Below, in pieces: positions 36,351-54,540 of a stretch of 64,000 nt of DNA; the first letter of the stretch is position 1; every line of letters starts with the position of its first letter. The position numbers and the translations under genes were made by a program. The DNA lies in NCBI GenBank assembly GCA_023664735.1, contig JAMPFB010000004.1:2316-66315 (forward strand). Reading direction: 5' to 3'. The DNA is from Robinsoniella sp. GTDB taxonomy: Bacteria > Bacillota > Clostridia > Lachnospirales > Lachnospiraceae. The notes beneath the pieces were generated by a model. It had not been told where the DNA came from and searched no databases. It saw only the letters and a program-made list of their open reading frames with translations.

Positions 36351-36377
36351 AAAAAAACAGGTCCCTAAGGGACCTGC
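36351..36377 (-). terminator. Rho-independent terminator ending the pilus operon
   Basis: The minus strand reads CAGGTCCC-TTAG-GGACCTG followed by TTTTTTT, 4 nt after the stop of the 1697-aa gene. Confidence 0.75.
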
Positions 36378-36380
36378 CTT

Positions 36381-39300
36381 TTAATCTAGTTTCAATAAAT
36401 CCATCTTTGTAACACCTAAAACTGCATAAGACTTACCGGACGTGCTAGCATTTACATCACCGGTTATAGATACGCTTTCAATCGTAGTCTCTGCTTCCAC
36501 ATAAAGCTTAAAGTCAACGTTTGTTTTCAGTAAATCCATAGGAAGCTTCAAGCCATACATAACACCGGCTGTAGCATCGGTACCATAAGCATAAGATTGA
36601 CCCTGAGCAAAGTCAGCCGGATAAAATGGCATCCTCAATTCTACCACCGTAACAGCCTGACCATTATCCAGTGTGATAGTCTGTGAACCAGCCGTGCCAT
36701 CAGACACTTCCCTCCAGAATTTAAGCTGGATTTTCTTTGAACCTTTTACCAGATTCGGATCTGATACGCAGAACCATACTTTGGTTGCATTTGCATCCGA
36801 TACCGATACAAATGGGTACTGGTATTTTGTATTGTCCGCTTTATCTATCAGAATAGAAGATTCTGCCTTATTCGTATCGCTGGCATTATAACCAACATTT
36901 TCGTCATATGGTACTACCACATTGCTGATAGCAGAACTGTTCAAATCACTTCCATCATAGATGCTTACGGCAGGCTTTTTGATTCCCGCCCGATATGCAG
37001 CAACCAATGTATTGATGAACAATTGTGCTTCGTATTTATTTTGCGGACTTACTAGATTGCTATGACCGCTTCCGGTATAAGTAACATTACCACTGTTAAA
37101 AATATAATAATTGTTGACTCCATCCTTTGGCGATATATTGTATACGCCATCAGCAAGCTTTGTGTTATTAGTTTCATCAGCTATATTGTCTCCATGTCCA
37201 TAAGCCAGCGTGTACCAAATGGTAATATCCGCCGTTCCATCCTGATCCTGATCCGCCTCCATATTCGGCTGGAAGTACTGCCCATGGGTTCTATTTACCG
37301 CAAATGAATCCGGCAGCTTGTAAGGATAATTTGTAATCTGTCCATCATTTACCTTATCAATAACAACAAGATAATCCTGATTGCTATTTGCTGCTGGTGG
37401 ATGTCCCCAATCATACATATCCGGGGACAACAGTGGAAAATAATCATTGCCTGTAGCTCTCTTGTTTGTATTACCACTCTTATCCTTATAAAATTTCATC
37501 AAAAAGTAATTGGTTAAACCCTGTGTCTCGCCTAGCAACGTCCTCTTATTGCTGCCCGGCTGGTACGCAACACGCCTTCCAGAGCCTTCAATCGCTGCAA
37601 TTGCAGCCGCATTGCCTGAATGCGATTTTGAATAGCTTGTTCCTTGTTTCAAATAGTTTCCAAGTTCTCCTGAAGTAAGACCATATCGATCCATCCCAAG
37701 CTTATCCCGCAATGTTTTTACAACTTTATAAGAGGGATAATGCTCCAAAAAGTCATGGGCAAGCAATACCGGTCTTCCGCTTGCAACATAATTAGCAATA
37801 GCATCCGTTGCTGTTTGAGCTATAAAATCATTTCCTTGTGTGTCCTTGTAGTTATCTCCAAATCCTAACACAAGCATATCAAAATCCTCCAATGCCTCAT
37901 AATAGCGCACCTCTTCTATTGTGGTCCCATTGGCATCTTTCCTAGGATACAAGTTGTTAACATATTGCGTCTGATTTATTGTGGTTATATCCAGCTTAAA
38001 CATGCCTAAAGATTCCAACTGGTTGATATACGCACCATACAAACCATGCTTATACTGTAAGGACAATGTACTTCCATTGTCTCCCTCGCCTCCCTCGTTG
38101 CCATTCAAAGTAATCTGCAGTATTTTGATAGTAGCTGCCGATGCTCCTCTTATGGCAGAATATCCTGTTTCACTGGCGGAAACATTGGGGGTAAGACTCT
38201 TTTGCACCTTCAAGCACCATGGAAGAACTCCCTGAAAGCCATCCGGCACCTCACGCCTTAACCGATACAATACATTCGTAGACAGCTTATAAGAACTCCC
38301 CCGGATGTCAGTGGTATGTACTACCTCCTCATTTGTCAGTGCATTGGTAACAACTGCCCCTTCCAGCTCTTCTGTTTCAGAAAACTTACCGTCTGCATTA
38401 ACATCCACATATAGCTTAGGCGTATATAAATCCGAATCTGTGCTATTTATAGAAAAGTTCTGCAAGGTAAATTCAAATTCTAAATAATATTTGCCATCTG
38501 AGCTTGCTGCAAGGTACTTTGGGGATGTAAGCGCACCATTCGTCAGTTCCACATATTCATACTCCGTAGGCCTTGCTGTAACATTCATAGACAGCTTTGC
38601 CGCATTAACCGCATGAGCCATCTTTTCTTTAAAGTTCGCTGCGGTAACCGGATTTCCAGCTGCCTCCAAGGCATCTGCTTCCGAAATGAAATTATCATAC
38701 CCACTACTGCTATAACTTCCTATGCTCTCCAAATTCCCACTATTCCCTGTTGCTATCTGGAAGAGCTCATACATCTCAGAACAGTTATCAATCCTTCCAT
38801 GGTCAATCCCAGTGATACCTGTATCCGTCAGAGAGCTGCCAGTGTTTATGGTTGGATTGATTATGCGATTATCGCTATCATCCGTCTTTAACATATCGCC
38901 TGCAACAATAATCGGATAGCCATTCTCTAGGAAATCCAGCAATTCTTTCTTTTTATAAACAGTCAAATCTCTCGCTGAAAAACGTGTTTCTCCACTTGTC
39001 TGCCTTTCACGGTTACCTTCAAAATATCCCCATAGCTTCTGTCCACCCCAACCAGAAGGCAGCGCCTCGCTATAATAAGTAATGTCCCCAATATTAAAAT
39101 ATACCATGCCATCCATCAGATTATCCCTGAAATCGGTAATATACTCCGGTGTATCAGCACTTTTGCCCACATCATCCTTTGCTTTGACAGTCTTATAATT
39201 TCCTGTAGTACCCCTATCATATGTGTCATAAGCAGGATTTCGAGAATGGTTTGAGCCGATATAAATAATGTCATAATCCTCACTAACGTTACCATTGATA

Positions 39301-41474
39301 CAGATAAACTCTTCAATCGTCATGCTCGTAAACATTACCCGGTCAATATTTTGTCCCTCTATATCGCCATTATCCTTAACGAAAGGCGCACCTAAATAGG
39401 TCTTAACAAACTCCTCCCTGTTTGCACAGCACTCATTTGCATACCGATTTCCACTATTCTTCACATCCGTATAGCTCTGGGTACCCCAGCCAATATTATA
39501 GGAAAAGTCCCTGCATGGCTCAATTTCCAATACCCGAAGGTCATTTTTTACCAGCTCGGAAGCCGTGCCATCATATGTCAGAATATATTGAACCACGACA
39601 GCAGGCGTTATACGCTCATTCATGGGCTCCGTAGGATTGCTGGCATTATTGGCTCTTACCATATATTCCACTCTGGAAAGTCCTGCCGCTATTACCGTTT
39701 CCGTATATTTGGAATTGAAGTCACCGTTTCCAAAGAAGTCATATGCATCCACCTGTGCCTTTGGAACATCGAAATAGCTAAGTCTATGCTCATATACGTA
39801 TACGCTCCCTGCCACAAAGTTGCTGCTACGCTTAAAAAACTCCTGACTGGCAAGATAATGCCATGTTATATTGCTTACGCTTCCATAAGAGAGAATGCTT
39901 AACTCCCCATTGCTTGCAATGTCAACATCAAACCCATTATTTGCCTCGCCGGACGCCTCATTTCCGGATATTGTGTCCGTCAAAACAGCCGTCTGGTTCT
40001 CCTGCCATAAAAGCAGAGCCAGCTTTTCCATATTGGACAGGCTTCCTACCGCTGCCTTATCTGCAATCAAGCCTGTATCAATCAGGGCATAGTCCATAAT
40101 CACTGCCTTATAATCCGTGCTGATTACTGCATTGTACAGCTCCATTACCTGAGAGTCGGAAAAATCCTTCCCATTATTCAGATAGGTTTCATTGCTTCCT
40201 GAAACATAGATCAAATCATAATCTTTCATGTCGTTACTGATTTCATCCGGAGTCTTTGTCTCTATAATTATATTAATATTGATATTCTTATCCCCAAATA
40301 CCAGCTCCTTAAACCAGCTGCCATTATGGAAGTAATTATTTGAATTATTATTATAATAAACATTCTTCGTCGTATAGCCAAAATATTTTCCAGCAGAGCT
40401 TTCAGAAAACTTCACATTTCCTGTGCCGTTCCCCACATAAGTAATGCCTTCCGGCAAAGCCTTGTTAAACCGGTCGCCTTCTTCTACCGGCGCATAGCTT
40501 CCATCATAAGCTCCCACGCCCTGAAAATATCGCTCTCCATAGCCTTCCTGCGAAGGAGCGACCCAGGAGCCTCCCTCTATATCCTGAAGCATATTCCCAT
40601 CGGTCGAATTCTCTGTTTCTCCGGATTCTGCCGGATTCTGCGGAGATTCTTCCTTAGGGGTTTCATTGCCCTGCCCTTCCTTTTCCTCTGCAGGCTCTTC
40701 CTCTTCATCCTCGACCGTAACAGTCACTTCCTCCTGTTCGTTCACTACCGGCACATCCTGACCGGGTGTTTCCTCCGTTACCCCTTCCGTATTGGAGATG
40801 ACAGAAAGAGCTCTGGTCAATGCCCCACCGCCGATGCTATTATTGCTTACCGGGGGATTATTTCCGCTGACAACGCCTGTCATGGCATTGATTGTTCCGG
40901 ACACATCAATGAAATAGCCATCCTGCAGCATATAATCCCCTGACATGCTGGAATCATTTTCATATACACCATATACCAGCTGCCTGCCTGCCTCTACATA
41001 TCCCGTCATGGCATAGCTGGCAAAGGTTGCAGCATCAGAATAAACCGGATTGTCAGATACATGCCCGGCGCTATTTCCATAATCAGCGCCATAATCCTTA
41101 ATCAGACCATAGTCACGCATCATCAGCAAATTGGAAACACCTTCCGCTGCTAAAAAGCTTCCGATGGATTTTGCTTTGGAAACCTCCATAAAATCCCGAT
41201 TGCCGCTTCCATCCTCCATAAAATATCCGATTTCCTCATTCTCATGAAGGGTATGCTCCGGCACCACCTCCAAAATCCTGAAAGTATCACCGCTTTTGTA
41301 TTTATCTGACACCTTCTGCAAAACCTTCGTACTTGCCTCTACCTGTGCAGTAGCCTTTTTTGCCACAAAGGTGCAAATGGCAATGGCAACAGCCAATACA
41401 GCTGCGGTACTCAATATTCTAATAATCAGCTTCTTTTTTCCTTTTTCCATATTCTCTCTCCATTGCATTTGCAT
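36381..41474 (-). CDS. Giant (about 1690 aa) exported non-pilin protein, last gene of the pilus operon; candidate pilus-associated adhesin
   Basis: An N-terminal K-rich segment is followed by one hydrophobic segment (LIIRILSTAAVLAVAIAICTFVA), with no prepilin G-F-x-L-x-E motif and no LPXTG. It has an acidic linker, a three-fold recurring pattern (FRILEVVP / LRVLEIEP / IKILQITL, each followed by DYDLIYVSGS / DYDIIYIGS / DFDMLVLGFG), and the DVNADGKFSETE and DQDQDGTAD calcium-loop motifs. Alternative starts at 41468 and 41450. Confidence 0.7.
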   Translation of the reverse strand: MQMQWRENMEKGKKKLIIRILSTAAVLAVAIAICTFVAKKATAQVEASTKVLQKVSDKYKSGDTFRILEVVPEHTLHENEEIGYFMEDGSGNRDFMEVSKAKSIGSFLAAEGVSNLLMMRDYGLIKDYGADYGNSAGHVSDNPVYSDAATFASYAMTGYVEAGRQLVYGVYENDSSMSGDYMLQDGYFIDVSGTINAMTGVVSGNNPPVSNNSIGGGALTRALSVISNTEGVTEETPGQDVPVVNEQEEVTVTVEDEEEEPAEEKEGQGNETPKEESPQNPAESGETENSTDGNMLQDIEGGSWVAPSQEGYGERYFQGVGAYDGSYAPVEEGDRFNKALPEGITYVGNGTGNVKFSESSAGKYFGYTTKNVYYNNNSNNYFHNGSWFKELVFGDKNININIIIETKTPDEISNDMKDYDLIYVSGSNETYLNNGKDFSDSQVMELYNAVISTDYKAVIMDYALIDTGLIADKAAVGSLSNMEKLALLLWQENQTAVLTDTISGNEASGEANNGFDVDIASNGELSILSYGSVSNITWHYLASQEFFKRSSNFVAGSVYVYEHRLSYFDVPKAQVDAYDFFGNGDFNSKYTETVIAAGLSRVEYMVRANNASNPTEPMNERITPAVVVQYILTYDGTASELVKNDLRVLEIEPCRDFSYNIGWGTQSYTDVKNSGNRYANECCANREEFVKTYLGAPFVKDNGDIEGQNIDRVMFTSMTIEEFICINGNVSEDYDIIYIGSNHSRNPAYDTYDRGTTGNYKTVKAKDDVGKSADTPEYITDFRDNLMDGMVYFNIGDITYYSEALPSGWGGQKLWGYFEGNRERQTSGETRFSARDLTVYKKKELLDFLENGYPIIVAGDMLKTDDSDNRIINPTINTGSSLTDTGITGIDHGRIDNCSEMYELFQIATGNSGNLESIGSYSSSGYDNFISEADALEAAGNPVTAANFKEKMAHAVNAAKLSMNVTARPTEYEYVELTNGALTSPKYLAASSDGKYYLEFEFTLQNFSINSTDSDLYTPKLYVDVNADGKFSETEELEGAVVTNALTNEEVVHTTDIRGSSYKLSTNVLYRLRREVPDGFQGVLPWCLKVQKSLTPNVSASETGYSAIRGASAATIKILQITLNGNEGGEGDNGSTLSLQYKHGLYGAYINQLESLGMFKLDITTINQTQYVNNLYPRKDANGTTIEEVRYYEALEDFDMLVLGFGDNYKDTQGNDFIAQTATDAIANYVASGRPVLLAHDFLEHYPSYKVVKTLRDKLGMDRYGLTSGELGNYLKQGTSYSKSHSGNAAAIAAIEGSGRRVAYQPGSNKRTLLGETQGLTNYFLMKFYKDKSGNTNKRATGNDYFPLLSPDMYDWGHPPAANSNQDYLVVIDKVNDGQITNYPYKLPDSFAVNRTHGQYFQPNMEADQDQDGTADITIWYTLAYGHGDNIADETNNTKLADGVYNISPKDGVNNYYIFNSGNVTYTGSGHSNLVSPQNKYEAQLFINTLVAAYRAGIKKPAVSIYDGSDLNSSAISNVVVPYDENVGYNASDTNKAESSILIDKADNTKYQYPFVSVSDANATKVWFCVSDPNLVKGSKKIQLKFWREVSDGTAGSQTITLDNGQAVTVVELRMPFYPADFAQGQSYAYGTDATAGVMYGLKLPMDLLKTNVDFKLYVEAETTIESVSITGDVNASTSGKSYAVLGVTKMDLLKLD

Positions 41475-41514: not shown

Positions 41515-43794
41515 CTATCTATTGTTCCTTCTCCAGTAATGATATGTGGAATCATATACATAACCCAGTCCGTTATATTCCATTTCAAGATTACCGTTTC
41601 TTACCCTTAGTTTTATATTCAGGTTTCCTGTAGGTGTGGAAACTGTCCTGGTTTGATATTTCTTACCAAGACCGTCTCGTCCCTGCTCAGGAATATAAGC
41701 AGTAACTCCTTCCACATTTGCCACATACACCGTATATTGTACATAAGAATCCGCAGCCTTATTTGAGATTACATAATAATCATCCAGTGCAAGCGTCAAG
41801 GTAATTGGCGCCTCCGGATACTCCCTTGTGTTACTTGCTGCCGTCAGCCTGAACTTAGCCTCCGTCACTCCTTTATCCCTTGTTCCAAGCAGGCTCTTGC
41901 CATTTTCTGTAGTCACCATCCTGCAGGACAGGTATTTGTTGGCTCCGCTGCTACTGCCGCCTACCTGAGTGCCATCCATAAACATACTCATCTGGGAAGA
42001 CTTTGTAATATTAAAGCCTAAAGTGGAAAGCGTAATATCCGAAGTAGTTCCTTTCCTGATGACAAGCACATTATCAGTAGGTCCAACCTTTAGCACCTGC
42101 ACCGCCGGAAGCGTAATCGTAGTGGTTCTGCTGTCAGTGCCTGTAGGTGTAGTAAAGTCAACCTTAAGTCCAATTTGCAGTCCCTGATAAAAACGGGCTT
42201 TTCTTGTAAAATCTCCATCATGATAAGCATCATAATCCACATATAAGACATAATTGTTATCAAAGTAAACGAAGTCGCTGAAATTTCCCGTATAATCCGG
42301 CACATTCGTTACTTCAATCTTGTCAATGCTGATTACAGAAGTAACATCTCCTGCAATCTCCGTAGGATTTACCATATAATAGGACTTCAAATCCATATTG
42401 ACGCCTCTTAAGAACTGGATATCCGATGTCAATATCGAATCCGCTATGTAAAAGACATATTCACCCTTCACTGTATTATCAAAAACAGAGGTCGCTTCTA
42501 CTTTAAAGCGATAGGCGGAATTTATATTGTTTCTTAAAAGCACCGTATTGCCATTCATAGCAGCTTCCGTAATGCTGTTGGCCTCCTGCCAGTTTCCTGC
42601 AAAATTGCCAGAGCCGTCTTTTATATCCTTGTATATTTTCCATGTAACCTGCTCATTTCCCTCTAAGTTCCAACCATCCACATTTGCGTTGAAAGTGATG
42701 GTAGCATTCTTTGTGGATACAGGCTGCCCCATATCATTATTACGCAGCGGCGTATAGGGATTTACCCATACTCCCAATGCTTTTACTACCTTAATCGTTG
42801 TATAGCCTATTTTTGTAGGATCCTCTCTGGAAGTAGAAATTACCCGAAAGGATTTTACAGTAGGATCCGGAATAGGCGTTATAGTATGCTGCCTTAGCGA
42901 AATCCGGTTTGGATCTGCCGGATCTGGGACTATATCTACGCCTGTCGCATCAGGGTCAGAGGAAAGCGACCAATCCACCGCTGTATCAGCGCTGCCTGTG
43001 CTCACTACTTTTGCATAAATATAAGGATTGCTGTCAGGATCAGTCCACTTTATATCTAATGGCTGATTTGCCTTTACCTCCATCCTAATGGTGGCAGGGT
43101 CATTCTTAAGAGAAACAATGCTATCCGCCGCCGGTCTTTCGGGAGTTGCATCGCTTCCCTCCTCTACATCCTTATTGCGCATGTGCACCTGATAATTTCC
43201 CGTATAGTCCCTGTTCCTTAAAGCATAAGTCAAATCAAATTCCAATATCTTGTCGCTTGTAAGCTTATCAGTATTTACAGTAAAATCCTGTACGTTATCC
43301 GCCAGCATTTCCGCATCCTCTGGATCAAAGCCGTTCCAATCATCACTTGCGCTGTCCCATGTGGTTTCATTAAAATAAATCACATTTCTAGCCTGATCAA
43401 AAAAGATAATCGACTTTGTCTGGCTGCTATTATTGATAAGCTGCAATATTTTAGCATTATTTAATACAATCAAATCAGCAGGATCACTGGAATATGTAGG
43501 ATAATAGCTTACATTAAACGAAACAGGAAGCCCGGTTGTAACATCTATGGAACCATCATAAAACTTCAGCTGCGTCTCACAGTCAATAACCCTGTCGGTA
43601 ATCGCATTGGCTGTAAACTGCGCCGCCTCCTGAACATCCGTTTCCGCACTGCTATGATTGTAGGTATTAGAGCTCTGCTGGACAAATGCCACCAACGATG
43701 CGCCCACAATGGACACAATCATAACCGCAACAAGCAGTTCAACTAATGAAAATCCGCTATTCTCCTGTAATAATTTTCTTTGAACATTCTTCAT
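41515..43794 (-). CDS. Very large minor-pilin-like protein (about 760 aa) with a class III prepilin signal
   Basis: MKNVQRKLLQENSG/FSLVELLVAVMIVSIV is a prepilin cleavage/methylation motif with Glu5. ATG 43794 (AGGTG RBS) is preferred over the TTG at 43827. Confidence 0.8.
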   Translation of the reverse strand: MKNVQRKLLQENSGFSLVELLVAVMIVSIVGASLVAFVQQSSNTYNHSSAETDVQEAAQFTANAITDRVIDCETQLKFYDGSIDVTTGLPVSFNVSYYPTYSSDPADLIVLNNAKILQLINNSSQTKSIIFFDQARNVIYFNETTWDSASDDWNGFDPEDAEMLADNVQDFTVNTDKLTSDKILEFDLTYALRNRDYTGNYQVHMRNKDVEEGSDATPERPAADSIVSLKNDPATIRMEVKANQPLDIKWTDPDSNPYIYAKVVSTGSADTAVDWSLSSDPDATGVDIVPDPADPNRISLRQHTITPIPDPTVKSFRVISTSREDPTKIGYTTIKVVKALGVWVNPYTPLRNNDMGQPVSTKNATITFNANVDGWNLEGNEQVTWKIYKDIKDGSGNFAGNWQEANSITEAAMNGNTVLLRNNINSAYRFKVEATSVFDNTVKGEYVFYIADSILTSDIQFLRGVNMDLKSYYMVNPTEIAGDVTSVISIDKIEVTNVPDYTGNFSDFVYFDNNYVLYVDYDAYHDGDFTRKARFYQGLQIGLKVDFTTPTGTDSRTTTITLPAVQVLKVGPTDNVLVIRKGTTSDITLSTLGFNITKSSQMSMFMDGTQVGGSSSGANKYLSCRMVTTENGKSLLGTRDKGVTEAKFRLTAASNTREYPEAPITLTLALDDYYVISNKAADSYVQYTVYVANVEGVTAYIPEQGRDGLGKKYQTRTVSTPTGNLNIKLRVRNGNLEMEYNGLGYVYDSTYHYWRRNNR

Positions 43795-43807
43795 ACTATT
43801 CACCTGC

Positions 43808-44374
43808 TTACCGCCCTTTTCGCACAACCTTACCTGTTTTCTTCATCAACTTAAGCTCATATTGCCTGCTTCCGCCTAATATATAGATTTCTTCTATGTA
43901 TTTTCCGTCCTTATAAGGAAGAAAGGCTCCCGTAGAACGGTCATAGGAAAACATAATGCCATTGCCTTCTCCTCCGACCAATTCCTCATCTGTAAGACCT
44001 GCCCCCTTGCAGATCATGGTAACGCCTCTTCCGGCTATCTTGTTTCCTTTCTCTTCTTTTGCTACACCCATCACATAAGTCTTGGCATAAATAGAATTAT
44101 CATACTTATAAAATTCAATATATACCCCGTCATTTTGTATATCCGTATTCACTCCCCCAAAAGTATCCTTTACGGAAACGGTTTTGGTAAGCTTTGAATG
44201 GGCAAGCACCTGTACTTTTTCTGTTGTAAGGGTATTGACCACCTTTTTATAGGCCTCCTGCGCCCTGTAGCTAAAGAGCACATCGCTTTTAATAACGCCA
44301 AAAGTAATCACTATTCCCATTACTGCCATTATTACAATTAGCTCGATTAAAGAAAACCCCTTATTCTCTTTCAT
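43808..44374 (-). CDS. Minor pilin (188 aa) with a prepilin signal
   Basis: MKENKG/FSLIELIVIMAVMGIV, the canonical G-F-x-L-I-E motif. Confidence 0.8.
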   Translation of the reverse strand: MKENKGFSLIELIVIMAVMGIVITFGVIKSDVLFSYRAQEAYKKVVNTLTTEKVQVLAHSKLTKTVSVKDTFGGVNTDIQNDGVYIEFYKYDNSIYAKTYVMGVAKEEKGNKIAGRGVTMICKGAGLTDEELVGGEGNGIMFSYDRSTGAFLPYKDGKYIEEIYILGGSRQYELKLMKKTGKVVRKGR

Positions 44375-44382
44375 ACCATCAC

Positions 44383-46905
44383 CTACTTTTTATTCCAGTT
44401 TTCGTAGTAAATCAAATCCGCAAGCTCCATATATCCATACTCGTTAGACGGTGTCGTATTCGTATCATTTGCCGCTGTATAATTTAAATAAGAAGCGCCG
44501 TCAATCAGAATATCTGCTGCAAAATGTCCGTTCACAAGATCGTTTTGATCCCTGCAGCTCATTGCCGCTTTTACCTTATCCGGAACTGCAATAAAGCTGT
44601 CACAGCTTGGTTCAACGGTAATTGTTCCTCTTGCAAGGATTACGCCTTTAAATTCCCTTGCCGTAACTCTTACATCTCCGCTGGCAACAACAAAGTAAAG
44701 CTTGTCGGCATTGGAATCTGTAATTTCAAAAGGACTGCCATTATAATTATTCACTATCATTGCATTGACTTCGTCTGCCGGGTCTACGCCTGTTCCGCTG
44801 TTCGTACATATCATAGTTGTCCCTGCCGGAACAATATCGCCAAACTGCTCAGTGCCTGATGCCACATCGTCTCCAAATGCATCGTCGCCTAAAACAATAT
44901 TTTCATATGCCGTGCGCAGGGAACCATCCACCGGATTAGTCAGTTCTGAGCTCGCTACATTTTCTATATTTAAAAGCAGCTTTGCAAATAAAGCCTGATG
45001 GCTGTCTTTAATTACATCTATGCTGGAATTTAAGCTTGCTATGTTATTTAAGTCTTCCGTTTTCGTGTCTCTCTTCAAAACTGCATTGCCAGTACCATTA
45101 TTATCAAAATAAACCAGATTTCCCGCAATATGTAAAGGAGAATTTACTACGCCGCTTGCATTCCTTGTACCCAAGGCTTCATTCCAGCTGAATTCTGCCA
45201 CATATTTTTTGATATATGCATCCAAAGCCTCTTTATCCGCAGCATAATAGTCACTGAAAAACTCATTTGCCATGGATTCTGAATTAAAATATAAGTAATA
45301 ATATACCATAACAGTGCCATCCACCCGCCGGTAAACCGGACGGTATGATGCACCATATGCATTAACTGATTTTCCAAGCTTTTCAAACACCTTATCCAGA
45401 CGCACTACCGAATATTTTAAAAGCGCATTTCCTGCCGCATCCGTTATCGTAGCGCCCGAAGCATCCGTCTGCACAGTGGTGGTAAGCATAGTATGCTCCG
45501 CTATAGTCATTGGGTTCTTTGGCAATACCTGTACATTTCCTTCATATCCCATGCATTCCTCAGGCACCATATACATCATCTGATCGCCTTTTACTGCAAC
45601 AGACTGGCCTAACATAAAATCACTGCTATTTAAATAGGGATCGGAAGGATCCGGACTGGGATTGATAGTATCCACATAATCAGACCCGGAAGCAACATTT
45701 GCATCATAATGCCTTGCTCCTACGAAAGCATGACCCATCAGCATCAGGTTATTAAGCTGCGACATATCCAGCGTTGTATTTGCCCCATTAATCAATATGG
45801 AGCTACTGTCCTCTGCCTGAACGCTGCCGCTTCCATAACCATAGTACTCCCCACCCAGAGTAATCCGGGAATTTCTTCCTTCTATCGTCAAATCGTCCTT
45901 GACATATGTTTTGTCCTGCAGGGAAACATTATTGGCGCTGAACACATCAATCGCTTCTGTCCAAAGCTGGGTCCCCGGCAAGGTAGTAAGGCCCGAACCG
46001 GCGCCATCTTTTCCAACTGTAACCTGCTTTGCTATATATTTACGTTCCTGCCCCGTTGTTTCATCTCCTACACGCAGACTCCGCCTATTATCTATAATCG
46101 TGCCAATCTTGCCGCCGCCATACACGCTTCCATTGATGGTGGTCTGAGTATTCCCATTCTTTACCTCCAGCAGCTCATTGGCAATCAGGCAGTAATTTTC
46201 AATATCAGGCATTTGTTTAGTAGATACAAAGCTTACTGTCGGTATCTTGATTACGATATCTGTGGTAAGCATGGACACATATCCTCTCAAATCCCGATAT
46301 TGCAAGGATACGTTTTTCAAAATCAGCATATCACCATTGCCAGGTTGATATGCAACTTCAGTATTGCCGATTCTTGTGTTCAGCGCTGGTATAAGATCCG
46401 GATCTGAGCCATCCTGCTTCGTAAGAACCAAAGCCCCAACATCCTTAGAGGAATCATATCTTGTTTTATCCAAATAGAGAGTCAGCTTATCCACCCTGTA
46501 TAACTGTGAATTTGTACCAGAACTGCCGGGCTGTTTATATCGAAGCTTCTCCCATAATGATTTATAAAAGCTCGTTTTGAATTCATCTTCCTTTTGCTGC
46601 ACAGAAAGATTGGATTGCCTACTGACTGCCGTGTAGCATTCTGCCATCGAAAGGGAAATTTCTCTCTGCAGTCCTACATTAATTTCATCCAGGGCAGTCT
46701 CCACCGTGTAAAAACTATTCTTTGCACTTCTATCGTTGTATTTCATATAGAAGTTGTAATAAGACGCATATACGCTGATGGATACCAGCACTCCTACAAA
46801 GGAAACCATAATAATAACCATTATTAAGGAAGAGCCTTCGTTCTGATACCGTTTCTTTCTAATTGCTTCTAATACCCCTGAAATTTTGTGAAACATAGAA
46901 AACAT
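44383..46905 (-). CDS. Large PilX/GspK-like pseudopilin-type protein (840 aa) lacking Glu5
   Basis: The N-terminus ...RYQNEG/SSLIMVIIMVSFVGVLVSI resembles PilX/GspK-type N-terminal helices, which lack the conserved Glu5. The gene is embedded among the minor pilin genes. Confidence 0.65.
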   Translation of the reverse strand: MFSMFHKISGVLEAIRKKRYQNEGSSLIMVIIMVSFVGVLVSISVYASYYNFYMKYNDRSAKNSFYTVETALDEINVGLQREISLSMAECYTAVSRQSNLSVQQKEDEFKTSFYKSLWEKLRYKQPGSSGTNSQLYRVDKLTLYLDKTRYDSSKDVGALVLTKQDGSDPDLIPALNTRIGNTEVAYQPGNGDMLILKNVSLQYRDLRGYVSMLTTDIVIKIPTVSFVSTKQMPDIENYCLIANELLEVKNGNTQTTINGSVYGGGKIGTIIDNRRSLRVGDETTGQERKYIAKQVTVGKDGAGSGLTTLPGTQLWTEAIDVFSANNVSLQDKTYVKDDLTIEGRNSRITLGGEYYGYGSGSVQAEDSSSILINGANTTLDMSQLNNLMLMGHAFVGARHYDANVASGSDYVDTINPSPDPSDPYLNSSDFMLGQSVAVKGDQMMYMVPEECMGYEGNVQVLPKNPMTIAEHTMLTTTVQTDASGATITDAAGNALLKYSVVRLDKVFEKLGKSVNAYGASYRPVYRRVDGTVMVYYYLYFNSESMANEFFSDYYAADKEALDAYIKKYVAEFSWNEALGTRNASGVVNSPLHIAGNLVYFDNNGTGNAVLKRDTKTEDLNNIASLNSSIDVIKDSHQALFAKLLLNIENVASSELTNPVDGSLRTAYENIVLGDDAFGDDVASGTEQFGDIVPAGTTMICTNSGTGVDPADEVNAMIVNNYNGSPFEITDSNADKLYFVVASGDVRVTAREFKGVILARGTITVEPSCDSFIAVPDKVKAAMSCRDQNDLVNGHFAADILIDGASYLNYTAANDTNTTPSNEYGYMELADLIYYENWNKK

Positions 46906-46913
46906 TCCTTTCT

Positions 46914-48686
46914 TTAATTGCTGCCGCCTGTAAACTTTGCAATTCTTGCATCCTTATTAAAGTTCTCGCCTGCTTTGAAAACCTGTACTGTCACTTCATA
47001 TATATAATCTTCATCATTGGAGCCTGTAATCGTGTTGATGCCATCCAAGGCTCCAAATCTTAACCTCTGTTTTACATCACCCTCAGATACTAAAGCGCCA
47101 TTCACATAACAGCTTACCTTGCTGTTTGGATATAGATAATCCCCATCAAAACGCGCATCCGTTTCTAAATTATATCCTATATTGCTATATATATGTGTAT
47201 GTACATTTTCAAGCCTGTTTTCTTTTAAATTTTCATCCAGCTGAAGCGTCATTTTATAATTTGCCTCTTTGCTGGCAAGATCCACTACCGAATTGCCCAC
47301 CTGCCGAATCAGGAAGAAATTCATCTCTGTTCCCAAAATAGCACTTGTATTTGTATCTACATTGCCTGCAGTATTCACAATATGAATAACATCCCCTCTT
47401 CCAGCGGCCGTTCCACTGGAAGCATCATAATTAGGAAAATAATAGAAATAAAAATTTCTTGGACGGTTGGCAGCGCTTCGGAACACTTCCGTTTCCATCT
47501 CTTCAAATACTGCACTTGCGCCTGAATTTAAAAGGGAAGCATTCATCAATTCATACTTATACTGCACTGTTATAATCCTATAAGGATTGCTGGGATTTAC
47601 CGGATTTGCCTCCTGCCTAATGTTAATATACATCTCCCTCTTAAGATCCTTTAAAATCTGCTCGCTGGTAACACCGCCTTTACATCTGAGCAAATACTGG
47701 GTTACTGCCTCGCCTAAGTCGCCACTGTCTTCCGAAAAATAACGATCCGAAGTCGTATCGTCCACAGCTGCATTCGTACCAATGTTGGTGTTTATTCTGG
47801 ACAACATGGTATCATTATAAGCCCTCTTACCGGAATAAGCGCCGCCCGCACTTTCACTTCTGATTTGGCTTCCATCATCATTATAATTCGGCAGGACTTC
47901 TGTCGTATCAACAAGCCCGGTGTCCACATAATCACGATAGTAATTGGCATCCATGCTCAAAATCACATCATATTTTTTAGAACCATATTGTACATTCCTA
48001 AGCCAGAATGCATACGCATGTAAATCATCATCTTCATTTAATTTGTCATCCTTTAAATATGGCTTACCAAAATAAACCTCTTCCGTATCGCCCCATTTTG
48101 CCTTATAAGCATACTTCATGCTATAACTGCTGCGAGGGTTACGGGATTCCAAATTATTCCCCCCCGTATTATAACTGCAGTCATAAACTCCCTCTTCATA
48201 GCCGGAAATGGCAAGAAGCCTTCCATGGTCAATGGACAGATTGCTATAGTCATCCTGATATTTATCATCATCAGCATCTACATACTTTGGTATTTTTACT
48301 GTTTCCCCTAAAGTATTGGTATGAGTCCCAGGCTCACATTCAATGACACAGCGTCCCCAGTTTTCCACAGCCATGCTGCTTGGCATAAATTTCAGCCCAT
48401 TTTCAGGATCTGTATTGGTGGGAGTCTCTGTGGGATGGGCGCTGTCCCAACCAGCATCCCACACATGCTCCAGCTGTATTATCGTATTTTCCACACCATA
48501 GGCGCTAATGCCTTCCATAATATTCTGAGCCACAATCGTACCATTCATGGTAACCTTGGCTTTGGAATTTACTTTGGAGGAAGTAACAAAATTCGCCAGC
48601 ATGGGAACAACCGCAATTGCCAGAATCGATACGGCTATTAAAAGCTCTACCAAAGTAAATCCCTTATCATTCCTTTGCATTTTCAT
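46914..48686 (-). CDS. Large PilV-like minor pilin (590 aa)
   Basis: MKMQRNDKG/FTLVELLIAVSILAIAVVPML prepilin motif. First gene after pilO. Confidence 0.8.
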   Translation of the reverse strand: MKMQRNDKGFTLVELLIAVSILAIAVVPMLANFVTSSKVNSKAKVTMNGTIVAQNIMEGISAYGVENTIIQLEHVWDAGWDSAHPTETPTNTDPENGLKFMPSSMAVENWGRCVIECEPGTHTNTLGETVKIPKYVDADDDKYQDDYSNLSIDHGRLLAISGYEEGVYDCSYNTGGNNLESRNPRSSYSMKYAYKAKWGDTEEVYFGKPYLKDDKLNEDDDLHAYAFWLRNVQYGSKKYDVILSMDANYYRDYVDTGLVDTTEVLPNYNDDGSQIRSESAGGAYSGKRAYNDTMLSRINTNIGTNAAVDDTTSDRYFSEDSGDLGEAVTQYLLRCKGGVTSEQILKDLKREMYINIRQEANPVNPSNPYRIITVQYKYELMNASLLNSGASAVFEEMETEVFRSAANRPRNFYFYYFPNYDASSGTAAGRGDVIHIVNTAGNVDTNTSAILGTEMNFFLIRQVGNSVVDLASKEANYKMTLQLDENLKENRLENVHTHIYSNIGYNLETDARFDGDYLYPNSKVSCYVNGALVSEGDVKQRLRFGALDGINTITGSNDEDYIYEVTVQVFKAGENFNKDARIAKFTGGSN

Positions 48687-49591: not shown

Positions 49592-51415
49592 CTATTCAAC
49601 CGTTTCCATAGCATCCAATGCTTCTTCCACATCTGTTTCGCTCTCTAAGAGCTTTGGATTCACTCCATATGTGCACATAATCGTAGCCGTCACTTCAGTA
49701 TTTACCTGATTGCTGTTTTCCAGAGTTTCCTGCTTGGTAGCAACGCTGGTACAGGATACATCTGAGAAATAATCAATGCTCCGAAGCTGGATAATTGCTT
49801 TTGCCACCGAACGTTTATTAGGATAGGTAGCGCTAATGGACACATCCGTGGATGTAATGTTTAAGCTGTCAATGCTGATTTTGGTAGGCATTAAGGTTTC
49901 CAAATCAGCAAGCACCTGATGCAGCTCTGAATTATAATTTTCTGTCTGGGCATATACAGACGTTAAATATTGATAATCCGCCTCAACCTGCACATAAGTA
50001 TCATAAATCGGCTGAATTTCCTGCAGCTGCTGCTTTCTGAGAAGCAATGCATCATTTTCCGTTTTTGCATCAAAATACGGAACTGCCGCCCATGCCGCAA
50101 GCCCTACTGCTATGACCGCTCCAATGCCCAATATAATAACCCCAACCTTGCTCTTCTTTCCGGTTGCCCCTTTGGTGCCCTTTTTATCTTTAGAAACCGT
50201 AACGGCATTTAATGAGAAGCCGGAAACACTGAGTCCGGCGCCAATAACCGAAATGTAATCACCAAGGGAGATATCCTGCAAATGAAGACCCTGATTGATA
50301 TTCGTTCCTGCTAAATCCCTTAAGACCTCTACATCTCTGCCCAGCTCTGCGGCAAGCAGGTTGGAAAAGCCCCAAAAGTCTGCGGCAATACCGGTGATAA
50401 CGATTCTGTCAATAGCCGCTTCCCTGTTCTTGGAATTATAATAGTCAATAACACGTACAATGGAGCTGATTAGCTGATTGTAAGAATATGTTATATCCTT
50501 ACGCAGACGAAGCATCTTCAGATTGGCATCTGCCTGCTTGGAGGCAACCTTTGCTGCTGCTGCGCCAACTGTATCTCCTGCTGAGGAAGCTCTTTCCGCA
50601 GCCTCCTCCTGTTCTCTGAAAAGCTCTTCTGTTTCTTTCTCCCTTTGCAGAAGGATTTCCTCTTCATCCGCCCGCATTACGAGATTATTTCTTCTTAATG
50701 TTTTGACAGCAGCTTCATAAGTAAGCTTTTCCCCATAAGCATCTGTCTCCATCAGAGTTTCCACGATTTGATCTGCACCATAGATACCTGAACGCTGCAT
50801 GGAAATAACCCCGTTCCTAATAACGGTAATCAGGGAATTTCTTTCATCTATCTTTACTACCAAATTTGTGCCTGTAGCAAATTTCGACTTTAAAACCTGA
50901 AATATAGAGTTACCGCTGTATTCAATAGAATCCAGTTCCAGCCCTAAGGCTTTTGCCAGTTCTACATAGCCTTCAAAAATATCTCCGGGAACTGCCATCA
51001 ACATCAAATGATACTGCTTATTGCCCGCATTATCCGTTACTGTATTCATGATATTGTGAGCAAACTGATACATGGATGGATCTACCGGGAAGTAATCCGT
51101 AACATTGCTTAACACCATATCCCTTACTTTATTTTCTTTTACTGCCGGGATCATCGCTTCCCTATTGGCAATTTTCGTGGAAGAAACGGAAAAAATAACT
51201 TTTTTCGCATGCATTCCATTTGCCTCTAAATAGGACCTTAATTCTGATGAAAATTCCCCGCTGGGGCGGACATAACCGTCATCCAATACTCCCTGGGGCG
51301 TTTTCATACTGAAAACACCATATACCTTTGGATGTTTGGACCGATAGTCCATTTCGCATACTTTTGTTAAGGAATAGCCAACCTCAATACTTAGTACTCT
51401 CTGTGCTTTTGCCAT
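49592..51415 (-). CDS. pilM: PilM-PilN fusion protein (actin-like ATPase domain, TM segment, PilN-like domain)
   Basis: 607 aa. N-terminal VLSIEVGYSLTKVCEM, an actin/FtsA-like fold, an internal TM segment (VGVIILGIGAVIAVGLAAWAAV), and an extracytoplasmic tail. This architecture is typical of clostridial PilMN. Confidence 0.75.
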   Translation of the reverse strand: MAKAQRVLSIEVGYSLTKVCEMDYRSKHPKVYGVFSMKTPQGVLDDGYVRPSGEFSSELRSYLEANGMHAKKVIFSVSSTKIANREAMIPAVKENKVRDMVLSNVTDYFPVDPSMYQFAHNIMNTVTDNAGNKQYHLMLMAVPGDIFEGYVELAKALGLELDSIEYSGNSIFQVLKSKFATGTNLVVKIDERNSLITVIRNGVISMQRSGIYGADQIVETLMETDAYGEKLTYEAAVKTLRRNNLVMRADEEEILLQREKETEELFREQEEAAERASSAGDTVGAAAAKVASKQADANLKMLRLRKDITYSYNQLISSIVRVIDYYNSKNREAAIDRIVITGIAADFWGFSNLLAAELGRDVEVLRDLAGTNINQGLHLQDISLGDYISVIGAGLSVSGFSLNAVTVSKDKKGTKGATGKKSKVGVIILGIGAVIAVGLAAWAAVPYFDAKTENDALLLRKQQLQEIQPIYDTYVQVEADYQYLTSVYAQTENYNSELHQVLADLETLMPTKISIDSLNITSTDVSISATYPNKRSVAKAIIQLRSIDYFSDVSCTSVATKQETLENSNQVNTEVTATIMCTYGVNPKLLESETDVEEALDAMETVE

Positions 51416-51537: not shown

Positions 51538-52299
51538 CTAAAACAGACCAAAATACCAACTTAAAAACGATTCGCCCCACAGCACCGACAACAAAATGCC
51601 GATTGCCAGATAAGGCCCCATAGCCAGTTTATGCCCTTCTTTTGTTACTTTCATGCGAATCAGATGTATAACAGAGCCAATTACACATCCTGCTATCATT
51701 GCCAGATATGACAGCTTCCAGCCAATCAGCAGACCAGCCGCCGCCATAAGCTTCACATCGCCACCGCCTATTGCCCTGCCCTTTGATGCTAAAAAAATAA
51801 TTTCAAATATTCCGCTTACAAGAACAAGACCAATCAAATACTGTTTCCAATCTGAAATATGCAGCAGCAAATGAAGTATACCTAATATAAAAATAAATAC
51901 ATTGATACCAAAGGGGATTTCATAAGTCCGAAAATCTATTACGCTTAATGTAAGAAGCGCTGATGCCAGAAAGCAATAGATAACCGCATCCAGATTCCAG
52001 CCTTTTACCACAAAAATCAATACATATAACAAACCATTTACTCCTTCAATAATAGGGTATTGAAGGGAAATATGCTTTTTGCATTGGCGACATCTACCAC
52101 CGAGAAACAGGTAGCTGAACAGTGGAATCAAATCATACCACTTCAGCTGATAACCACATTGCATACAGTGGCTCCTGTTCTTGGCTATACTCTCCCTGTT
52201 TGGGATGCGTAAAATACAGACATTTAAAAAACTGCCAATCACAATCCCAAACAGGAAGATCCATATGTAAAATATGAGATTATATAGCTCGATGGTCAT
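51538..52299 (-). CDS. pilD: Prepilin peptidase (A24 family) PilD
   Basis: 253 aa. N-terminal Cys4 motif CMQCGYQL...CRQCKK, and the catalytic-Asp motif GGGDVKLMAAAG. Confidence 0.9.
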   Translation of the reverse strand: MTIELYNLIFYIWIFLFGIVIGSFLNVCILRIPNRESIAKNRSHCMQCGYQLKWYDLIPLFSYLFLGGRCRQCKKHISLQYPIIEGVNGLLYVLIFVVKGWNLDAVIYCFLASALLTLSVIDFRTYEIPFGINVFIFILGILHLLLHISDWKQYLIGLVLVSGIFEIIFLASKGRAIGGGDVKLMAAAGLLIGWKLSYLAMIAGCVIGSVIHLIRMKVTKEGHKLAMGPYLAIGILLSVLWGESFLSWYFGLF

Positions 52300-52365: not shown

Positions 52366-52809
52366 TTAGTAGCTTGTTGGGTCGTAAGTAGTACCATTGG
52401 CATCTACTACAACTTTAAGGTTATGATTAGTTGTATCTTCTGAAATTTTAATTGTAACCGTTACAGAGTTAAATACCTTAGATTTAAACTTATTATTTGC
52501 TACACTGCCATAAAATTCAGAAATAGCAGCATTTAAACCAGTGGTAGCAGTACCACCGGTGACAGTGACACCAGTACTGGTGATTACAATGTTGTCACCA
52601 TCATTAAGATCATCATAATAATCATCATCAGTAGTAGCAGTCTGTGCTGCCTTCGTTAAGGAATCAATCATATCCTTATCAGAAGAAACTCTTGATTTTT
52701 CTACGTACTTAATGTACTGTGGCGCTAATACACCAATTAAGATTGCCATAATAGCAATAACGATGATAAGTTCTACTAACGAGAAACCTTTGTTGTTTGT
52801 CTTTTTCAT
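52366..52809 (-). CDS. pilA: Type IV pilin (candidate major pilin, copy 2)
   Basis: MKKTNNKG/FSLVELIIVIAIMAILIGVLAPQYIKYVEKSR. 147 aa, no Cys. Confidence 0.85.
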   Translation of the reverse strand: MKKTNNKGFSLVELIIVIAIMAILIGVLAPQYIKYVEKSRVSSDKDMIDSLTKAAQTATTDDDYYDDLNDGDNIVITSTGVTVTGGTATTGLNAAISEFYGSVANNKFKSKVFNSVTVTIKISEDTTNHNLKVVVDANGTTYDPTSY

Positions 52810-52884
52810 ACTAAACTCTCTCCTTTTAACATTTTATTTTTTGTTTTTATCTTAAACACTCTTCCCCTATGCAAAGTGTCTAAT

Positions 52885-53310
52885 TCATGGATTAGGCTGC
52901 CAGCTTCCGGTTACCATAAAAGTACCACTGGCGGTAGCAGCATCTTCAAATTCAACTACATACTTTTGATTATGATATGTTTTTGATTTTACCTGCTTGC
53001 TGCTCCAGCCGGCAATAAATTCATTCAATGCGTTGGTCAGATTCGGGTCATTTGCAGGCTGCAAATCAATCCCGCTTCTGGAAAAAATAATTTGATCCCC
53101 TATATTCACATCTGAAAAATAACTTTCATCTGATGCAATCAAATATCCCACGCCAAGCAATGTGTCCGCCGTATCCTCATCTACTGAGACTCTGGACTTT
53201 TCCACGTATTTAATATACTGGGGAGCCAGCACCCCTATCAGGACTGCCATAATGGCAACCACGATAATCAATTCTATTAAAGAAAATCCTTTATTCCTAC
53301 TTCCTTCCAT
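52885..53310 (-). CDS. pilA: Type IV pilin (candidate major pilin, copy 1)
   Basis: MEGSRNKG/FSLIELIIVVAIMAVLIGVLAPQYIKYVEKSR. 141 aa. The C-terminal domain differs from copy 2. Confidence 0.85.
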   Translation of the reverse strand: MEGSRNKGFSLIELIIVVAIMAVLIGVLAPQYIKYVEKSRVSVDEDTADTLLGVGYLIASDESYFSDVNIGDQIIFSRSGIDLQPANDPNLTNALNEFIAGWSSKQVKSKTYHNQKYVVEFEDAATASGTFMVTGSWQPNP

Positions 53311-53322
53311 AGCCTTTCCCTC

Positions 53323-54540
53323 TTACAAATTATCAAGACCTTCATACATAGCTGCCATCGGCGCCATAACCGCACCAATAATAACGCCGCAGACGCCTGC
53401 CATAACAATAATCAGCGCCGGCTCCAAAGCAGCCATCAAAGACTGGGTTGCAGTCTCCACTTCCTCTTCATAATAATCAGCCATCTTATCAAGCATATCC
53501 TCTACATTACCTGTTTCCTCACCGATACGGGTCATATGATATACCATAGGCGGAAACAGTCCGCAGCGCTCAAGGGGCTGTGACAGCGGAACACCCTGCA
53601 TAACGTCTGTCTTGGCATTCATCAATGCTTCTTTATAGAATAAGTTGTTGATGGTGCCGGCTGTTATTTCCACAGCTTCCGGCATAGGTATGCCGGCAGC
53701 CAGCATAGTGGACAATGTCCTTGCCAGCTTCGCCGAGCTGGACTTAACTGTAATATCACCAAACAGTGGAATCTTTATAGCAGCCTTGGATATCAGCGCT
53801 TCGCCAAAAGGCTGCCTTTTAAACCACATAACAAAAGCTACGATTGCTATGATAGCCATGACTACTATATACCATCTTGCCTTCATGAAATCACTGGCAG
53901 CAATAACCGCCAAGGTGATGCCCGGCATGTCAATGTCCATATCTGCAAACATTCCTATGAAATTAGGAACCACGAAAGTCAGCATGACGATAACAACCAC
54001 TACCGCTACAATAGCTACTACGATTGGGTAAATCATAGCCTTTTTTATCATGGACTGCAGCTTTGCAGATTTTTCAAACTGCTCCGCCATACGTTCAAAG
54101 GCAATGTCCAGACTACCGGAAGCTTCACCTGCAGTTACCATATGAATCAGCAGCCCTGGAAATACTTTTGGTGACTTTGCCATGGATTTTGCTAAAGACT
54201 CACCTTTCTGAACACCCAGATAAGTCTCCTGAACCGCTTCCCTCAACGTATCGTTTTCCGTCTGTTCCGTAAGCATCCGCAAAGATTCCAAAATCGTTAC
54301 ACCTGCCCTGTGCATGCTGACAAACTGCCTGCAGAAAAGGCTCAAATCCCTTGTCTTCACCTTTTTCTTGAAAATCGCTAAATTGACATCCTTATCCAAA
54401 AGCCCCTGTTCCTTCAGCTCCATAGGCGTCAGCCCATCGTTTTTAATAATGCTTCTGGCTTTTTCTAATGTATCCGCTTCAATAGAACTTTTTACCTGTT
54501 TTCCTGCCTTGTCTATGGCAATATAAGAATATGTAGCCAA
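53323..54540 (-). CDS. pilC: Pilus platform protein PilC (GspF family)
   Basis: 405 aa with two GspF repeats (FCRQFVSMHRAGVTILESL, ARTLSTMLAAGIPMPEAV). TTG start with a GGAGGG RBS 7 nt upstream. Confidence 0.9.
   Translation of the reverse strand: MATYSYIAIDKAGKQVKSSIEADTLEKARSIIKNDGLTPMELKEQGLLDKDVNLAIFKKKVKTRDLSLFCRQFVSMHRAGVTILESLRMLTEQTENDTLREAVQETYLGVQKGESLAKSMAKSPKVFPGLLIHMVTAGEASGSLDIAFERMAEQFEKSAKLQSMIKKAMIYPIVVAIVAVVVVIVMLTFVVPNFIGMFADMDIDMPGITLAVIAASDFMKARWYIVVMAIIAIVAFVMWFKRQPFGEALISKAAIKIPLFGDITVKSSSAKLARTLSTMLAAGIPMPEAVEITAGTINNLFYKEALMNAKTDVMQGVPLSQPLERCGLFPPMVYHMTRIGEETGNVEDMLDKMADYYEEEVETATQSLMAALEPALIIVMAGVCGVIIGAVMAPMAAMYEGLDNL

Follow-up and report, generated by a model that had tools for sequence, protein, structure and literature searches.

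Which protein, if any, takes the place of PilY1 in the type IV pili of Gram-positive bacteria? The question is raised by the gene that ends a type IV pilus operon in a Robinsoniella species (Lachnospiraceae), carried on a stretch of 64,000 nt (contig JAMPFB010000004.1 of assembly GCA_023664735.1, positions 2,316 to 66,315 of the forward strand), which is hereafter called the window and to which all coordinates refer. This gene codes for a giant non-pilin protein of the DUF5057 family. Adhesion, assembly priming and the crossing of the cell wall are all open matters for Gram-positive type IV pili, and a review of the pili of monoderm bacteria describes stripped-down machines with no PilC/PilY1-type protein (PMC6916266). 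An earlier note on the window, made by a model from the letters alone, had proposed the giant as a possible Gram-positive analogue of PilY1/PilC. Our analysis indicates that the giant is the best candidate so far for a Gram-positive counterpart of PilY1 and that it is unrelated to PilY1 itself. Most likely, it holds a fixed place at the end of the minor-pilin module (pilin / PilK-like / pilin / pilin / giant), which serves a type IVa-like pilus of Clostridia that can retract.

The four genes preceding the giant encode three prepilins with an N_methyl match and one pilin-like protein that lacks the glutamate at position 5 (E5). These genes, the giant and its terminator are arranged as follows.

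46914-48686, minus strand: minor pilin of 590 aa (N_methyl)
44383-46905, minus strand: PilK/GspK-type pilin-like protein of 840 aa without Glu5 (…NEG/SSLIMVII…)
43808-44374, minus strand: minor pilin of 188 aa (N_methyl)
41515-43827, minus strand: minor pilin of 770 aa (N_methyl), directly upstream of the giant
36381..41474, minus strand: coding sequence of the giant, DUF5057 family, 1697 aa, ATG start
36358..36376, minus strand: intrinsic terminator with an 8-bp GC-rich stem, a 3-nt loop and a T7 tail

The reading frame had been placed exactly by the earlier note, which implied no strand for it; the strand is minus. Because the sequence directly past the stop codon of the giant (36376-36358) forms a perfect hairpin, CAGGTCCC-tta-GGGACCTG, with a T7 run behind it, the pilus operon of this genome ends with the giant. 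Its placement at the operon end, right after the minor pilins, had been noticed before, and the gene calls and the terminator agree with it here.

Across Clostridia, the constant feature of the giant is its position after the minor pilins and not the end of an operon. This emerged from a scan based on the giant that took one genome per species and yielded 58 loci, in which open reading frames were matched to the window proteins and searched for the class III prepilin motif; the patterns used favour recognisable relatives. The loci span Lachnospiraceae, Oscillospiraceae, Ruminococcaceae, Acutalibacteraceae, Sporobacter, Butyrivibrio and ‘Clostridium’. Among the 55 loci with at least 700 nt of upstream sequence, the immediate co-oriented upstream gene is a prepilin reading frame in 52, and the three exceptions look like giant reading frames split by frameshifts. 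The PilK-like gene without E5 is present in every one of the 49 loci that extend at least 5.5 kb upstream. Spacing between the giant and the upstream pilin consists of short gaps or overlaps.

Downstream of the giant, by comparison, the neighbours change: topA follows in 20 loci, all from Lachnospiraceae, unrelated genes in 30, PilB in two and PilD in one. The giant is not the final pilus gene in loci L042:14493-17363 and L056:14459-17342, where PilB and a PilT-like gene follow, or in L058:12899-13678, where PilD follows. Pfam searches of three distant loci found both DUF5057 and N_methyl, and precomputed Pfam labels give the same gene order in two relatives at 30-32% identity. The order was also approached from the other side, by sampling metagenomes with the PilK-like protein. 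Here the sequence PilK-like gene, small pilin, pilin, giant recurred in 53/55 loci with at least 4.5 kb of downstream sequence, and the other two carry a large reading frame at the position of the giant that is truncated by the contig end. Whether homologues always follow minor-pilin genes had been raised as a survey question, with homologues lying away from pilus genes as the outcome that would count against a pilus role. From both directions, homologues follow minor pilins in essentially every relative sampled.

The second constant feature is the end of the protein.

36384..36419, minus strand: extreme C-terminal peptide LGVTKMDLLKLD-COOH, a candidate docking strand

A first homologue search returned 27 homologues of 1.57-1.76 kaa (thousand aa) at 30-85% identity, and a second search, with a whole-protein alignment, found nothing past the first 28 proteins. 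An exhaustive HMMER search with a profile of aa 620-1697 gave 1,923 representatives at 50% identity (E <= 1e-3), 1,255 of them at E <= 1e-30; nearly all are 1.4-3 kaa long, and many are aligned through their last residue. In an alignment of 207 relatives, aa ~600-1500 are aligned in ~200 and the first ~350 aa in 30-38 only. By alignment, the giant has a variable N-terminus and a conserved core. The family consensus at the C-terminus is L-T-[IV]-x-[KR]-x-[DQE]-L-[FL]-[DN]-L-[DE]-COOH (in short form, K-x-x-L-F/L-D-L-D-COOH). The full 12-residue pattern is found in 133 of 147 representatives, and the positionally fixed ending [LIVMF]-x-x-[LIVMF]-x-COOH in 142. All complete genome copies of the giant share this fixed peptide, and within the close family the last 12 residues belong to the 2% of 12-mers that are best conserved (ninth among non-overlapping blocks).

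One metagenome-assembled genome (MAG) from Oscillospiraceae holds two DUF5057 giants (L039:211-5172 and L040:552-5555) with a variant C-terminus, …YEM[AL]LH[SQ]LV-COOH, and the upstream DNA of both ends at the contig edge. This pair is reminiscent of the multiple PilY1 sets of Myxococcus.

A precedent for such a fixed terminal peptide comes from Gram-negative pili. PilC/PilY1 contributes its last ~10-12 residues as the missing part of the beta-sheet in a PilK-type minor pilin and thereby licenses pilus assembly (Ellison et al. 2026, PMC13533445). The same docking was proposed by modelling for MshQ, an unrelated protein encoded right after the minor pilins of the MSHA pilus, and in GspK and CpaL the licensing strand is supplied in cis (PMC13533445). 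This terminal-strand licensing scheme suits a protein whose gene always lies behind the minor pilins and whose C-terminus is always the same peptide.

The giant also carries two Asp-rich loops of the kind described in PilY1.

37227..37253, minus strand: DQDQDGTAD, aa 1408-1416, an exact Dx(D/N)xDGxxD loop of the PilY1 ‘motif 1’ type
38370..38405, minus strand: DVNADGKFSETE, aa 1024-1035, a 12-residue DxNxDG...E loop of the PilY1 ‘motif 3’ type

The calcium motifs of PilY1/PilC include motif 1, Dx(D/N)xDGxxD, and motif 3, DxD/NxDxxxxxxD/E (PMC13190605), and the two loops of the giant fit these two classes. Each motif type arises in ~0.75% of 20,000 composition-preserving shuffles. Across the 27 homologues of the first search, no substitution occurs at D1024, N1026, G1029, D1408, D1412 or G1413, and conservation reaches at least 90% at D1028, F1031, E1035 and D1416. 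Ranked by conservation, the block LYVDVNADGKFS comes third among the 12-mers of the giant, and the 12-residue loop is retained in most of the distant relatives. Two calcium-loop-like motifs had been reported from the sequence before; their positions were exact, and conservation of both extends to homologues at 30% identity.

The identification of the longer loop as an EF-hand type did not survive structure prediction. An AlphaFold2 model was built for aa 620-1697 (1078 aa) from a 15-sequence alignment, with a predicted local distance difference test score (pLDDT) of 65 and a predicted template modelling score of 0.61. In this model the 12-residue loop joins the beta-strands E395-404 and E422-425 of a beta-sandwich (pLDDT ~58-68). 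Because it connects strands and not helices, it is a loop of the DxDxDG type and not a helix-loop-helix EF-hand, and Pfam searches of the whole protein and of seven segments gave no EF-hand match. A dockerin reading of DVNADGKFSETE was also rejected: the element occurs as a single copy, Dockerin_1 gives no match, and the loop is followed by a strand and not by a helix. Calcium binding by the 12-residue loop is somewhat to be favoured.

What kind of protein carries these features is only partly revealed by its domains, which are listed here from the N-terminus.

41334..41474, minus strand: N-terminal signal peptide or anchor, aa 1-47, with a K-rich n-region, hydrophobic aa 14-43 and VEA
39675..41333, minus strand: variable N-terminal region, aa 48-600, which holds the first ‘ILEVVP...DYDLIYVSG’ alpha/beta module
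40575..40799, minus strand: acidic low-complexity linker, aa 226-300, rich in E/T/P/Q
38775..39557, minus strand: second alpha/beta module, aa 640-900 (LRVLEIEPC ... DYDIIYIGS ... LLDFLENGYPIIVAGD), with a low-confidence insertion
37752..38969, minus strand: DUF5057 (PF16480) match, aa 836-1241, running from the last part of module 2 through the beta-sandwich into the first part of module 3
38109..38597, minus strand: beta-sandwich, aa ~960-1122, with the 12-residue loop (AlphaFold2 strands, local residues 341-503)
36990..38135, minus strand: third alpha/beta module, aa ~1114-1495 (IKILQIT ... DFDMLVLGFG ... RPVLLAHDF ... NVTYTGSGH ... EAQLFINTLVAAY), with a big low-confidence insertion
36399..36923, minus strand: C-terminal beta-sandwich, aa ~1518-1692 (AlphaFold2 strands, local residues 899-1073, pLDDT 70-89)

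The only family match is Pfam DUF5057 (PF16480), at E = 1.5e-51 and 176.4 bits against a cut-off of 27.9. This domain model covers aa 836-1241 alone and cuts across the predicted domain boundaries. NCBIfam returned no family for the giant, and Pfam searches of the seven segments at E <= 10 returned DUF5057 pieces and noise only (GEVED 0.043, YtoQ 0.012). Sequence searches of the PDB, with a profile and with three single segments, found no relative; the sole row was LH3 at E = 0.38.

The AlphaFold2 model consists of alpha/beta modules around the ILEI and DYD motifs, two beta-sandwiches and a long low-confidence insertion. Foldseek searches with this model against the PDB and BFVD gave generic beta-sandwich or multi-domain matches alone (template modelling (TM) score <= 0.15), among them integrin thigh/calf, PAD N-terminal domains, GH2/GH123 accessory domains and an SGNH esterase, and these were not used to assign a function. 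For the first beta-sandwich, the matches were immunoglobulin-like or beta-sandwich domains only.

The pattern ‘ILEI.P ... DYD.IY.G’ recurs at aa 67/418, 648/733 and 1118/1197 and is conserved in homologues, with a degenerate third copy. This recurrence had been pointed out previously and holds. The accompanying suggestion of three flavodoxin- or GATase1-like modules is plausible as judged from the model, in which the modules have beta-alpha-beta secondary structure, and finds no support in Pfam, PDB or Foldseek searches. Comparisons among the three modules with hhalign aligned merely 11-27 columns (P 0.002-0.008), which are short matches at the level of motifs. Because they are short and weak, a true three-fold domain repeat is not established, and hhalign of the two beta-sandwiches likewise gave no convincing internal repeat. 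The acidic stretch at aa 226-300 breaks up the first alpha/beta module, within the N-terminal region that varies among clades. A von Willebrand factor A (vWA) or metal ion-dependent adhesion site reading of DFSDS at aa 437 was dropped after its serines proved not to be conserved.

The N-terminus points to export as a non-pilin. The sole hydrophobic segment of the giant spans aa 14-43 and is followed by VEA, of which A47 is invariant in homologues. Among 147 representatives, the N-termini of relatives are similar, with MKK, a hydrophobic region and [VA]x[A] in succession, and resemble Sec signals ending in AxA or VxA. The giant is thus predicted to be secreted by Sec export, and signal peptidase I would cleave it near A47. 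No class III prepilin motif (G-1, F/M+1 and E+5 with a hydrophobic helix) occurs in its first 120 aa, and Pfam gives no match to PF07963 N_methyl. Neither LPxT[GAN] nor a C-terminal hydrophobic segment was found in the giant, and LPXTG is present in 0/147 relatives. The earlier note had likewise read an N-terminal signal or anchor without a prepilin motif or LPXTG.

The exact start of the giant is ambiguous. An identical protein deposited at NCBI (‘DUF5057 domain-containing protein’, from a MAG of Roseburia sp.) begins 8 codons later and is 1689 aa long. Within 41450-41474 on the minus strand, there are three in-frame ATGs (codons 1, 3 and 9, of which NCBI uses codon 9), each preceded by a purine-rich stretch, and the leader ahead of these alternative starts is rich in AGGTGA/GGAGAG. 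The choice among them leaves the conclusions unaffected.

Non-pilin proteins that act in pilus tips or in priming are a known kind, to which PilY1/PilC belongs, with a C-terminal seven-bladed propeller (PF05567) and variable N-terminal domains (PMC13190605; PMC3248442). The giant is not part of the PilY1 family, and what is new is the size of the DUF5057 family, its linkage to minor-pilin genes, its fixed C-terminal peptide and its variable N-terminus. Like PilY1/PilC, the giant is a large non-pilin with a predicted signal peptide that is encoded right after the core minor pilins, and its variable N-terminal part precedes a conserved C-terminal two-thirds. The Dx(D/N)xDGxxD and 12-residue Asp-rich motifs and a conserved extreme C-terminal peptide are shared as well. 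Unlike PilY1/PilC, the giant has no propeller, no vWA domain and no detectable similarity in sequence or fold. In addition, its calcium-type loop lies within a beta-sandwich, its host is a monoderm without a secretin, and its PilK-like partner appears to carry its own terminal strand.

Membership in the PilY1/PilC family was considered and rejected. PF05567 matches neither the whole protein (E <= 1) nor its seven segments (E <= 10), a profile search of the PDB retrieved no PilY1 chain (3HX6 was not found), and Foldseek against the PDB returned neither a beta-propeller nor a vWA domain. Thus, of the analogy drawn in the earlier note, the placement and the motif classes stand, the former through minor-pilin synteny, and homology does not.

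Other systems offer further parallels. MshQ of the Vibrio cholerae MSHA pilus is ~1200 aa long, is not a PilY1 homologue and is encoded directly downstream of PilIJK-type minor pilins, with its C-terminal docking proposed from synteny and modelling; it differs from the giant in belonging to an unrelated sequence family and in its Gram-negative host. In CpaL/TadG of Tad pili and GspK of type II secretion, the licensing strand lies at the extreme C-terminus of a large tip protein, past a long dispensable middle. This layout is matched by the 840-aa PilK-like neighbour, whereas the DUF5057 giant lacks the pilin N-terminus that these pilin-like proteins have.

Among Gram-positive Clostridia, the tapirins of Caldicellulosiruptor (PDB 4wa0) are also non-pilin adhesins encoded beside a type IV pilus locus, and their pilus link is unresolved (bioRxiv 10.1101/359786). 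They differ in being beta-helix cellulose binders of ~600-900 aa without DUF5057, and they weakly resemble the PilK-like neighbour, not the giant. In Streptococcus sanguinis, PilB and PilC likewise exemplify Gram-positive pilus adhesion by adhesive modules carried on the pilus, but these are true pilins onto which vWA or lectin modules have been grafted. Literature searches found no function, pilus link or paper for DUF5057 and no PilY1-type component in Gram-positive or Clostridial type IV pili, in keeping with the earlier remark that no such analogue has been described.

Taken in parts, the evidence carries different weights. Functional coupling of the giant to the minor-pilin module is very probable. 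Its role as a partner in the tip or in initiation is about evenly balanced between being right and wrong, and docking of its C-terminal strand onto minor pilins is a more tentative idea, with the chances somewhat against it. The reading that we favour over its rivals, to which we give an even chance, is that the giant is a secreted, calcium-binding, non-pilin partner of the minor-pilin tip or initiation complex, analogous to PilY1, MshQ and CpaL. The giant (~185 kDa) would, after Sec export, join the minor-pilin initiation complex at the membrane and would then be carried at, or remain bound to, the pilus tip. The core (aa ~600-1500) and the C-terminal sandwich with its terminal peptide might hold it on the minor pilins, one or both Asp-rich loops could bind calcium to stabilise or gate the fold, and the clade-variable N-terminal region may contact the substrate.

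Several points weigh against this proposal. The association of the giant with the pilus is deduced from gene order, the metagenome loci are redundant, and synteny in many loci partly reflects shared ancestry. Conservation of the DxDxDGxxD nonamer is confined to the Lachnospiraceae clade, and most relatives from Oscillospiraceae lack it. It had been argued that motifs in unstructured regions would speak against the idea, and this concern touches the DxDxDG loop, which falls in a model segment with pLDDT < 50. The AlphaFold2 model is of medium quality overall, and in this monomer the last strand of the giant packs into its own beta-sandwich. Furthermore, a globular passenger of ~185 kDa would have to pass thick peptidoglycan.

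The PilK-like neighbour adds a further difficulty. Its AlphaFold2 model (pLDDT 82.6) starts with a 73-residue N-terminal helix, continues through a small sheet and a middle part resembling a beta-solenoid, and ends, past a disordered linker at 809-824, in a confident strand at E832-839. The protein ends in LIYYENWNKK-COOH, and the pattern [DE]L[IV]xYxNWxK[EK]-COOH is conserved in all 49 loci. The PilK-like protein therefore supplies its own C-terminal strand, in the in-cis layout of GspK and CpaL, and the slot that PilY1 fills in trans may, in terms of the model, already be occupied. If the peptide of the giant docks, it may consequently pair beside that strand or in another minor pilin. A kinship of the PilK-like protein with tapirins was set aside, as the Foldseek match to the C-terminal domain of 4wa0 (E 0.05, prob 0.30) is too weak.

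The remainder of the operon has the composition of a type IV pilus machine. The whole pilus gene set, with dprA and the PilT-like gene included, lies on the minus strand.

59325-60380, minus strand: PilT-like ATPase of 351 aa, T2SSE family, the size of a PilT retraction motor
57646-59181, minus strand: ComM-like protein
56460-57611, minus strand: DprA
54578-56278, minus strand: PilB ATPase
53323-54540, minus strand: PilC platform
52885-53310 and 52366-52809, minus strand: two major-pilin paralogues in tandem
51538-52299, minus strand: PilD peptidase
49592-51415, minus strand: PilM-PilN fusion, a single protein of 607 aa
48735-49580, minus strand: PilO-like protein of 281 aa with an acidic low-complexity tail
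36315-36287, beyond the terminator: topA promoter-like site

The PilT-like ATPase upstream of comM and dprA suggests that the pilus is retractile. The tandem major-pilin paralogues (141 and 147 aa; 52366-53310) are almost the same in their N-terminal halves and differ in their C-terminal halves. The counterpart of the 770-aa minor pilin is merely 165-210 aa long outside Lachnospiraceae, in the loci of Oscillospiraceae. With their large C-terminal additions, the 770- and 590-aa minor pilins of Lachnospiraceae may be modular adhesive pilins.

Past topA lie codY and then the flagellar flgB operon. The pilus operon sits between dprA and topA, within a dprA-topA-codY-flgB block (32637-57611, minus strand). 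We take this block to be the one familiar from Bacillus subtilis. Because the operon is located elsewhere in other families, the dprA/comM neighbourhood may reflect ancestry and need not point to DNA uptake.

Among rival explanations, the one that survives best, and which we still consider improbable, is that the giant is cargo of a type II secretion-like pseudopilus, a piston that would drive the large folded protein through the peptidoglycan, and that its site of action is not the pilus but, for instance, the matrix or an adhesive surface. Export of folded proteins that depends on type IV pili has been proposed in Clostridium perfringens (bioRxiv 10.1101/2024.11.04.621531), and a final operon gene whose product has a signal-peptide-like N-terminus and no wall anchor could be such a substrate. 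However, cargo genes of type II secretion systems normally have no fixed position and no conservation across families, whereas the order of the giant after the minor pilins is invariant across bacterial families when approached from both directions. A positionally fixed extreme C-terminus is not a known feature of cargo, and the two major pilins and the PilT-like ATPase are as expected for a true retractile pilus.

Slightly less probable still is a peptidoglycan collar, channel or base component that stands in for the missing secretin/PilP layer. How monoderm pili pass through peptidoglycan is an open question (PMC6916266), and minor pilins as huge as 590-840 aa need a wide passage. The strict linkage of the giant to pilus machinery and its conserved core behind a variable N-terminus would suit such a part. 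Yet Pfam and NCBIfam detected neither a peptidoglycan-binding nor a hydrolase domain, nothing hints at repeats that could form a ring, and the linkage is to minor-pilin genes specifically and not to PilMNO. The fixed C-terminal peptide also suits the docking of a subunit better than a collar.

A third explanation, to which we assign a low probability, holds that the giant is co-transcribed and shares regulation only, being otherwise a mechanistically independent glycan-binding or enzymatic surface protein. The predicted alpha/beta modules and beta-sandwiches and the weak Foldseek matches to glycosidase accessory domains and an SGNH-type esterase are compatible with this. These matches are nonetheless generic (TM <= 0.15), and no catalytic family was detected in Pfam, NCBIfam or PDB sequence searches. 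Moreover, co-regulation alone would not maintain the order between bacterial families in which the genes downstream differ. Invariant order over such divergence, together with tight spacing and the fixed C-terminus, favours a structural partner of the minor pilins over both cargo and co-regulation. Finally, a highly divergent true homologue of PilY1/PilC, which the shared operon position and the presence of both calcium motif classes might suggest, is effectively refuted by the lack of PF05567 even at E <= 10, of 3HX6 and of any Foldseek propeller, and by a predicted fold of alpha/beta modules and sandwiches instead of a seven-bladed propeller.

The hosts of the giant include Lachnospiraceae, Oscillospiraceae and Ruminococcaceae, the dominant butyrate producers and fibre degraders of gut and rumen. 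A family of ~1,900 clusters of giants that is locked to minor-pilin genes provides a testable candidate for a missing component of Gram-positive pili. It also gives DUF5057, a domain of unknown function, its first functional context, and the 12-residue calcium-type loop and the last 12 residues offer two experimental handles. A bolder version, which we regard as rather unlikely to hold in full, is that monoderm type IVa pili have their missing PilY1-equivalent in the DUF5057 giants: a structurally unrelated, calcium-dependent tip protein of gut and rumen Clostridia that is locked onto the minor-pilin initiation complex via its invariant C-terminal K-x-x-L-F-D-L-D. If this were true, the rule of terminal beta-strand licensing would extend to Gram-positive pili, and the variable N-terminus of the giant would set the adhesion targets of abundant commensals.

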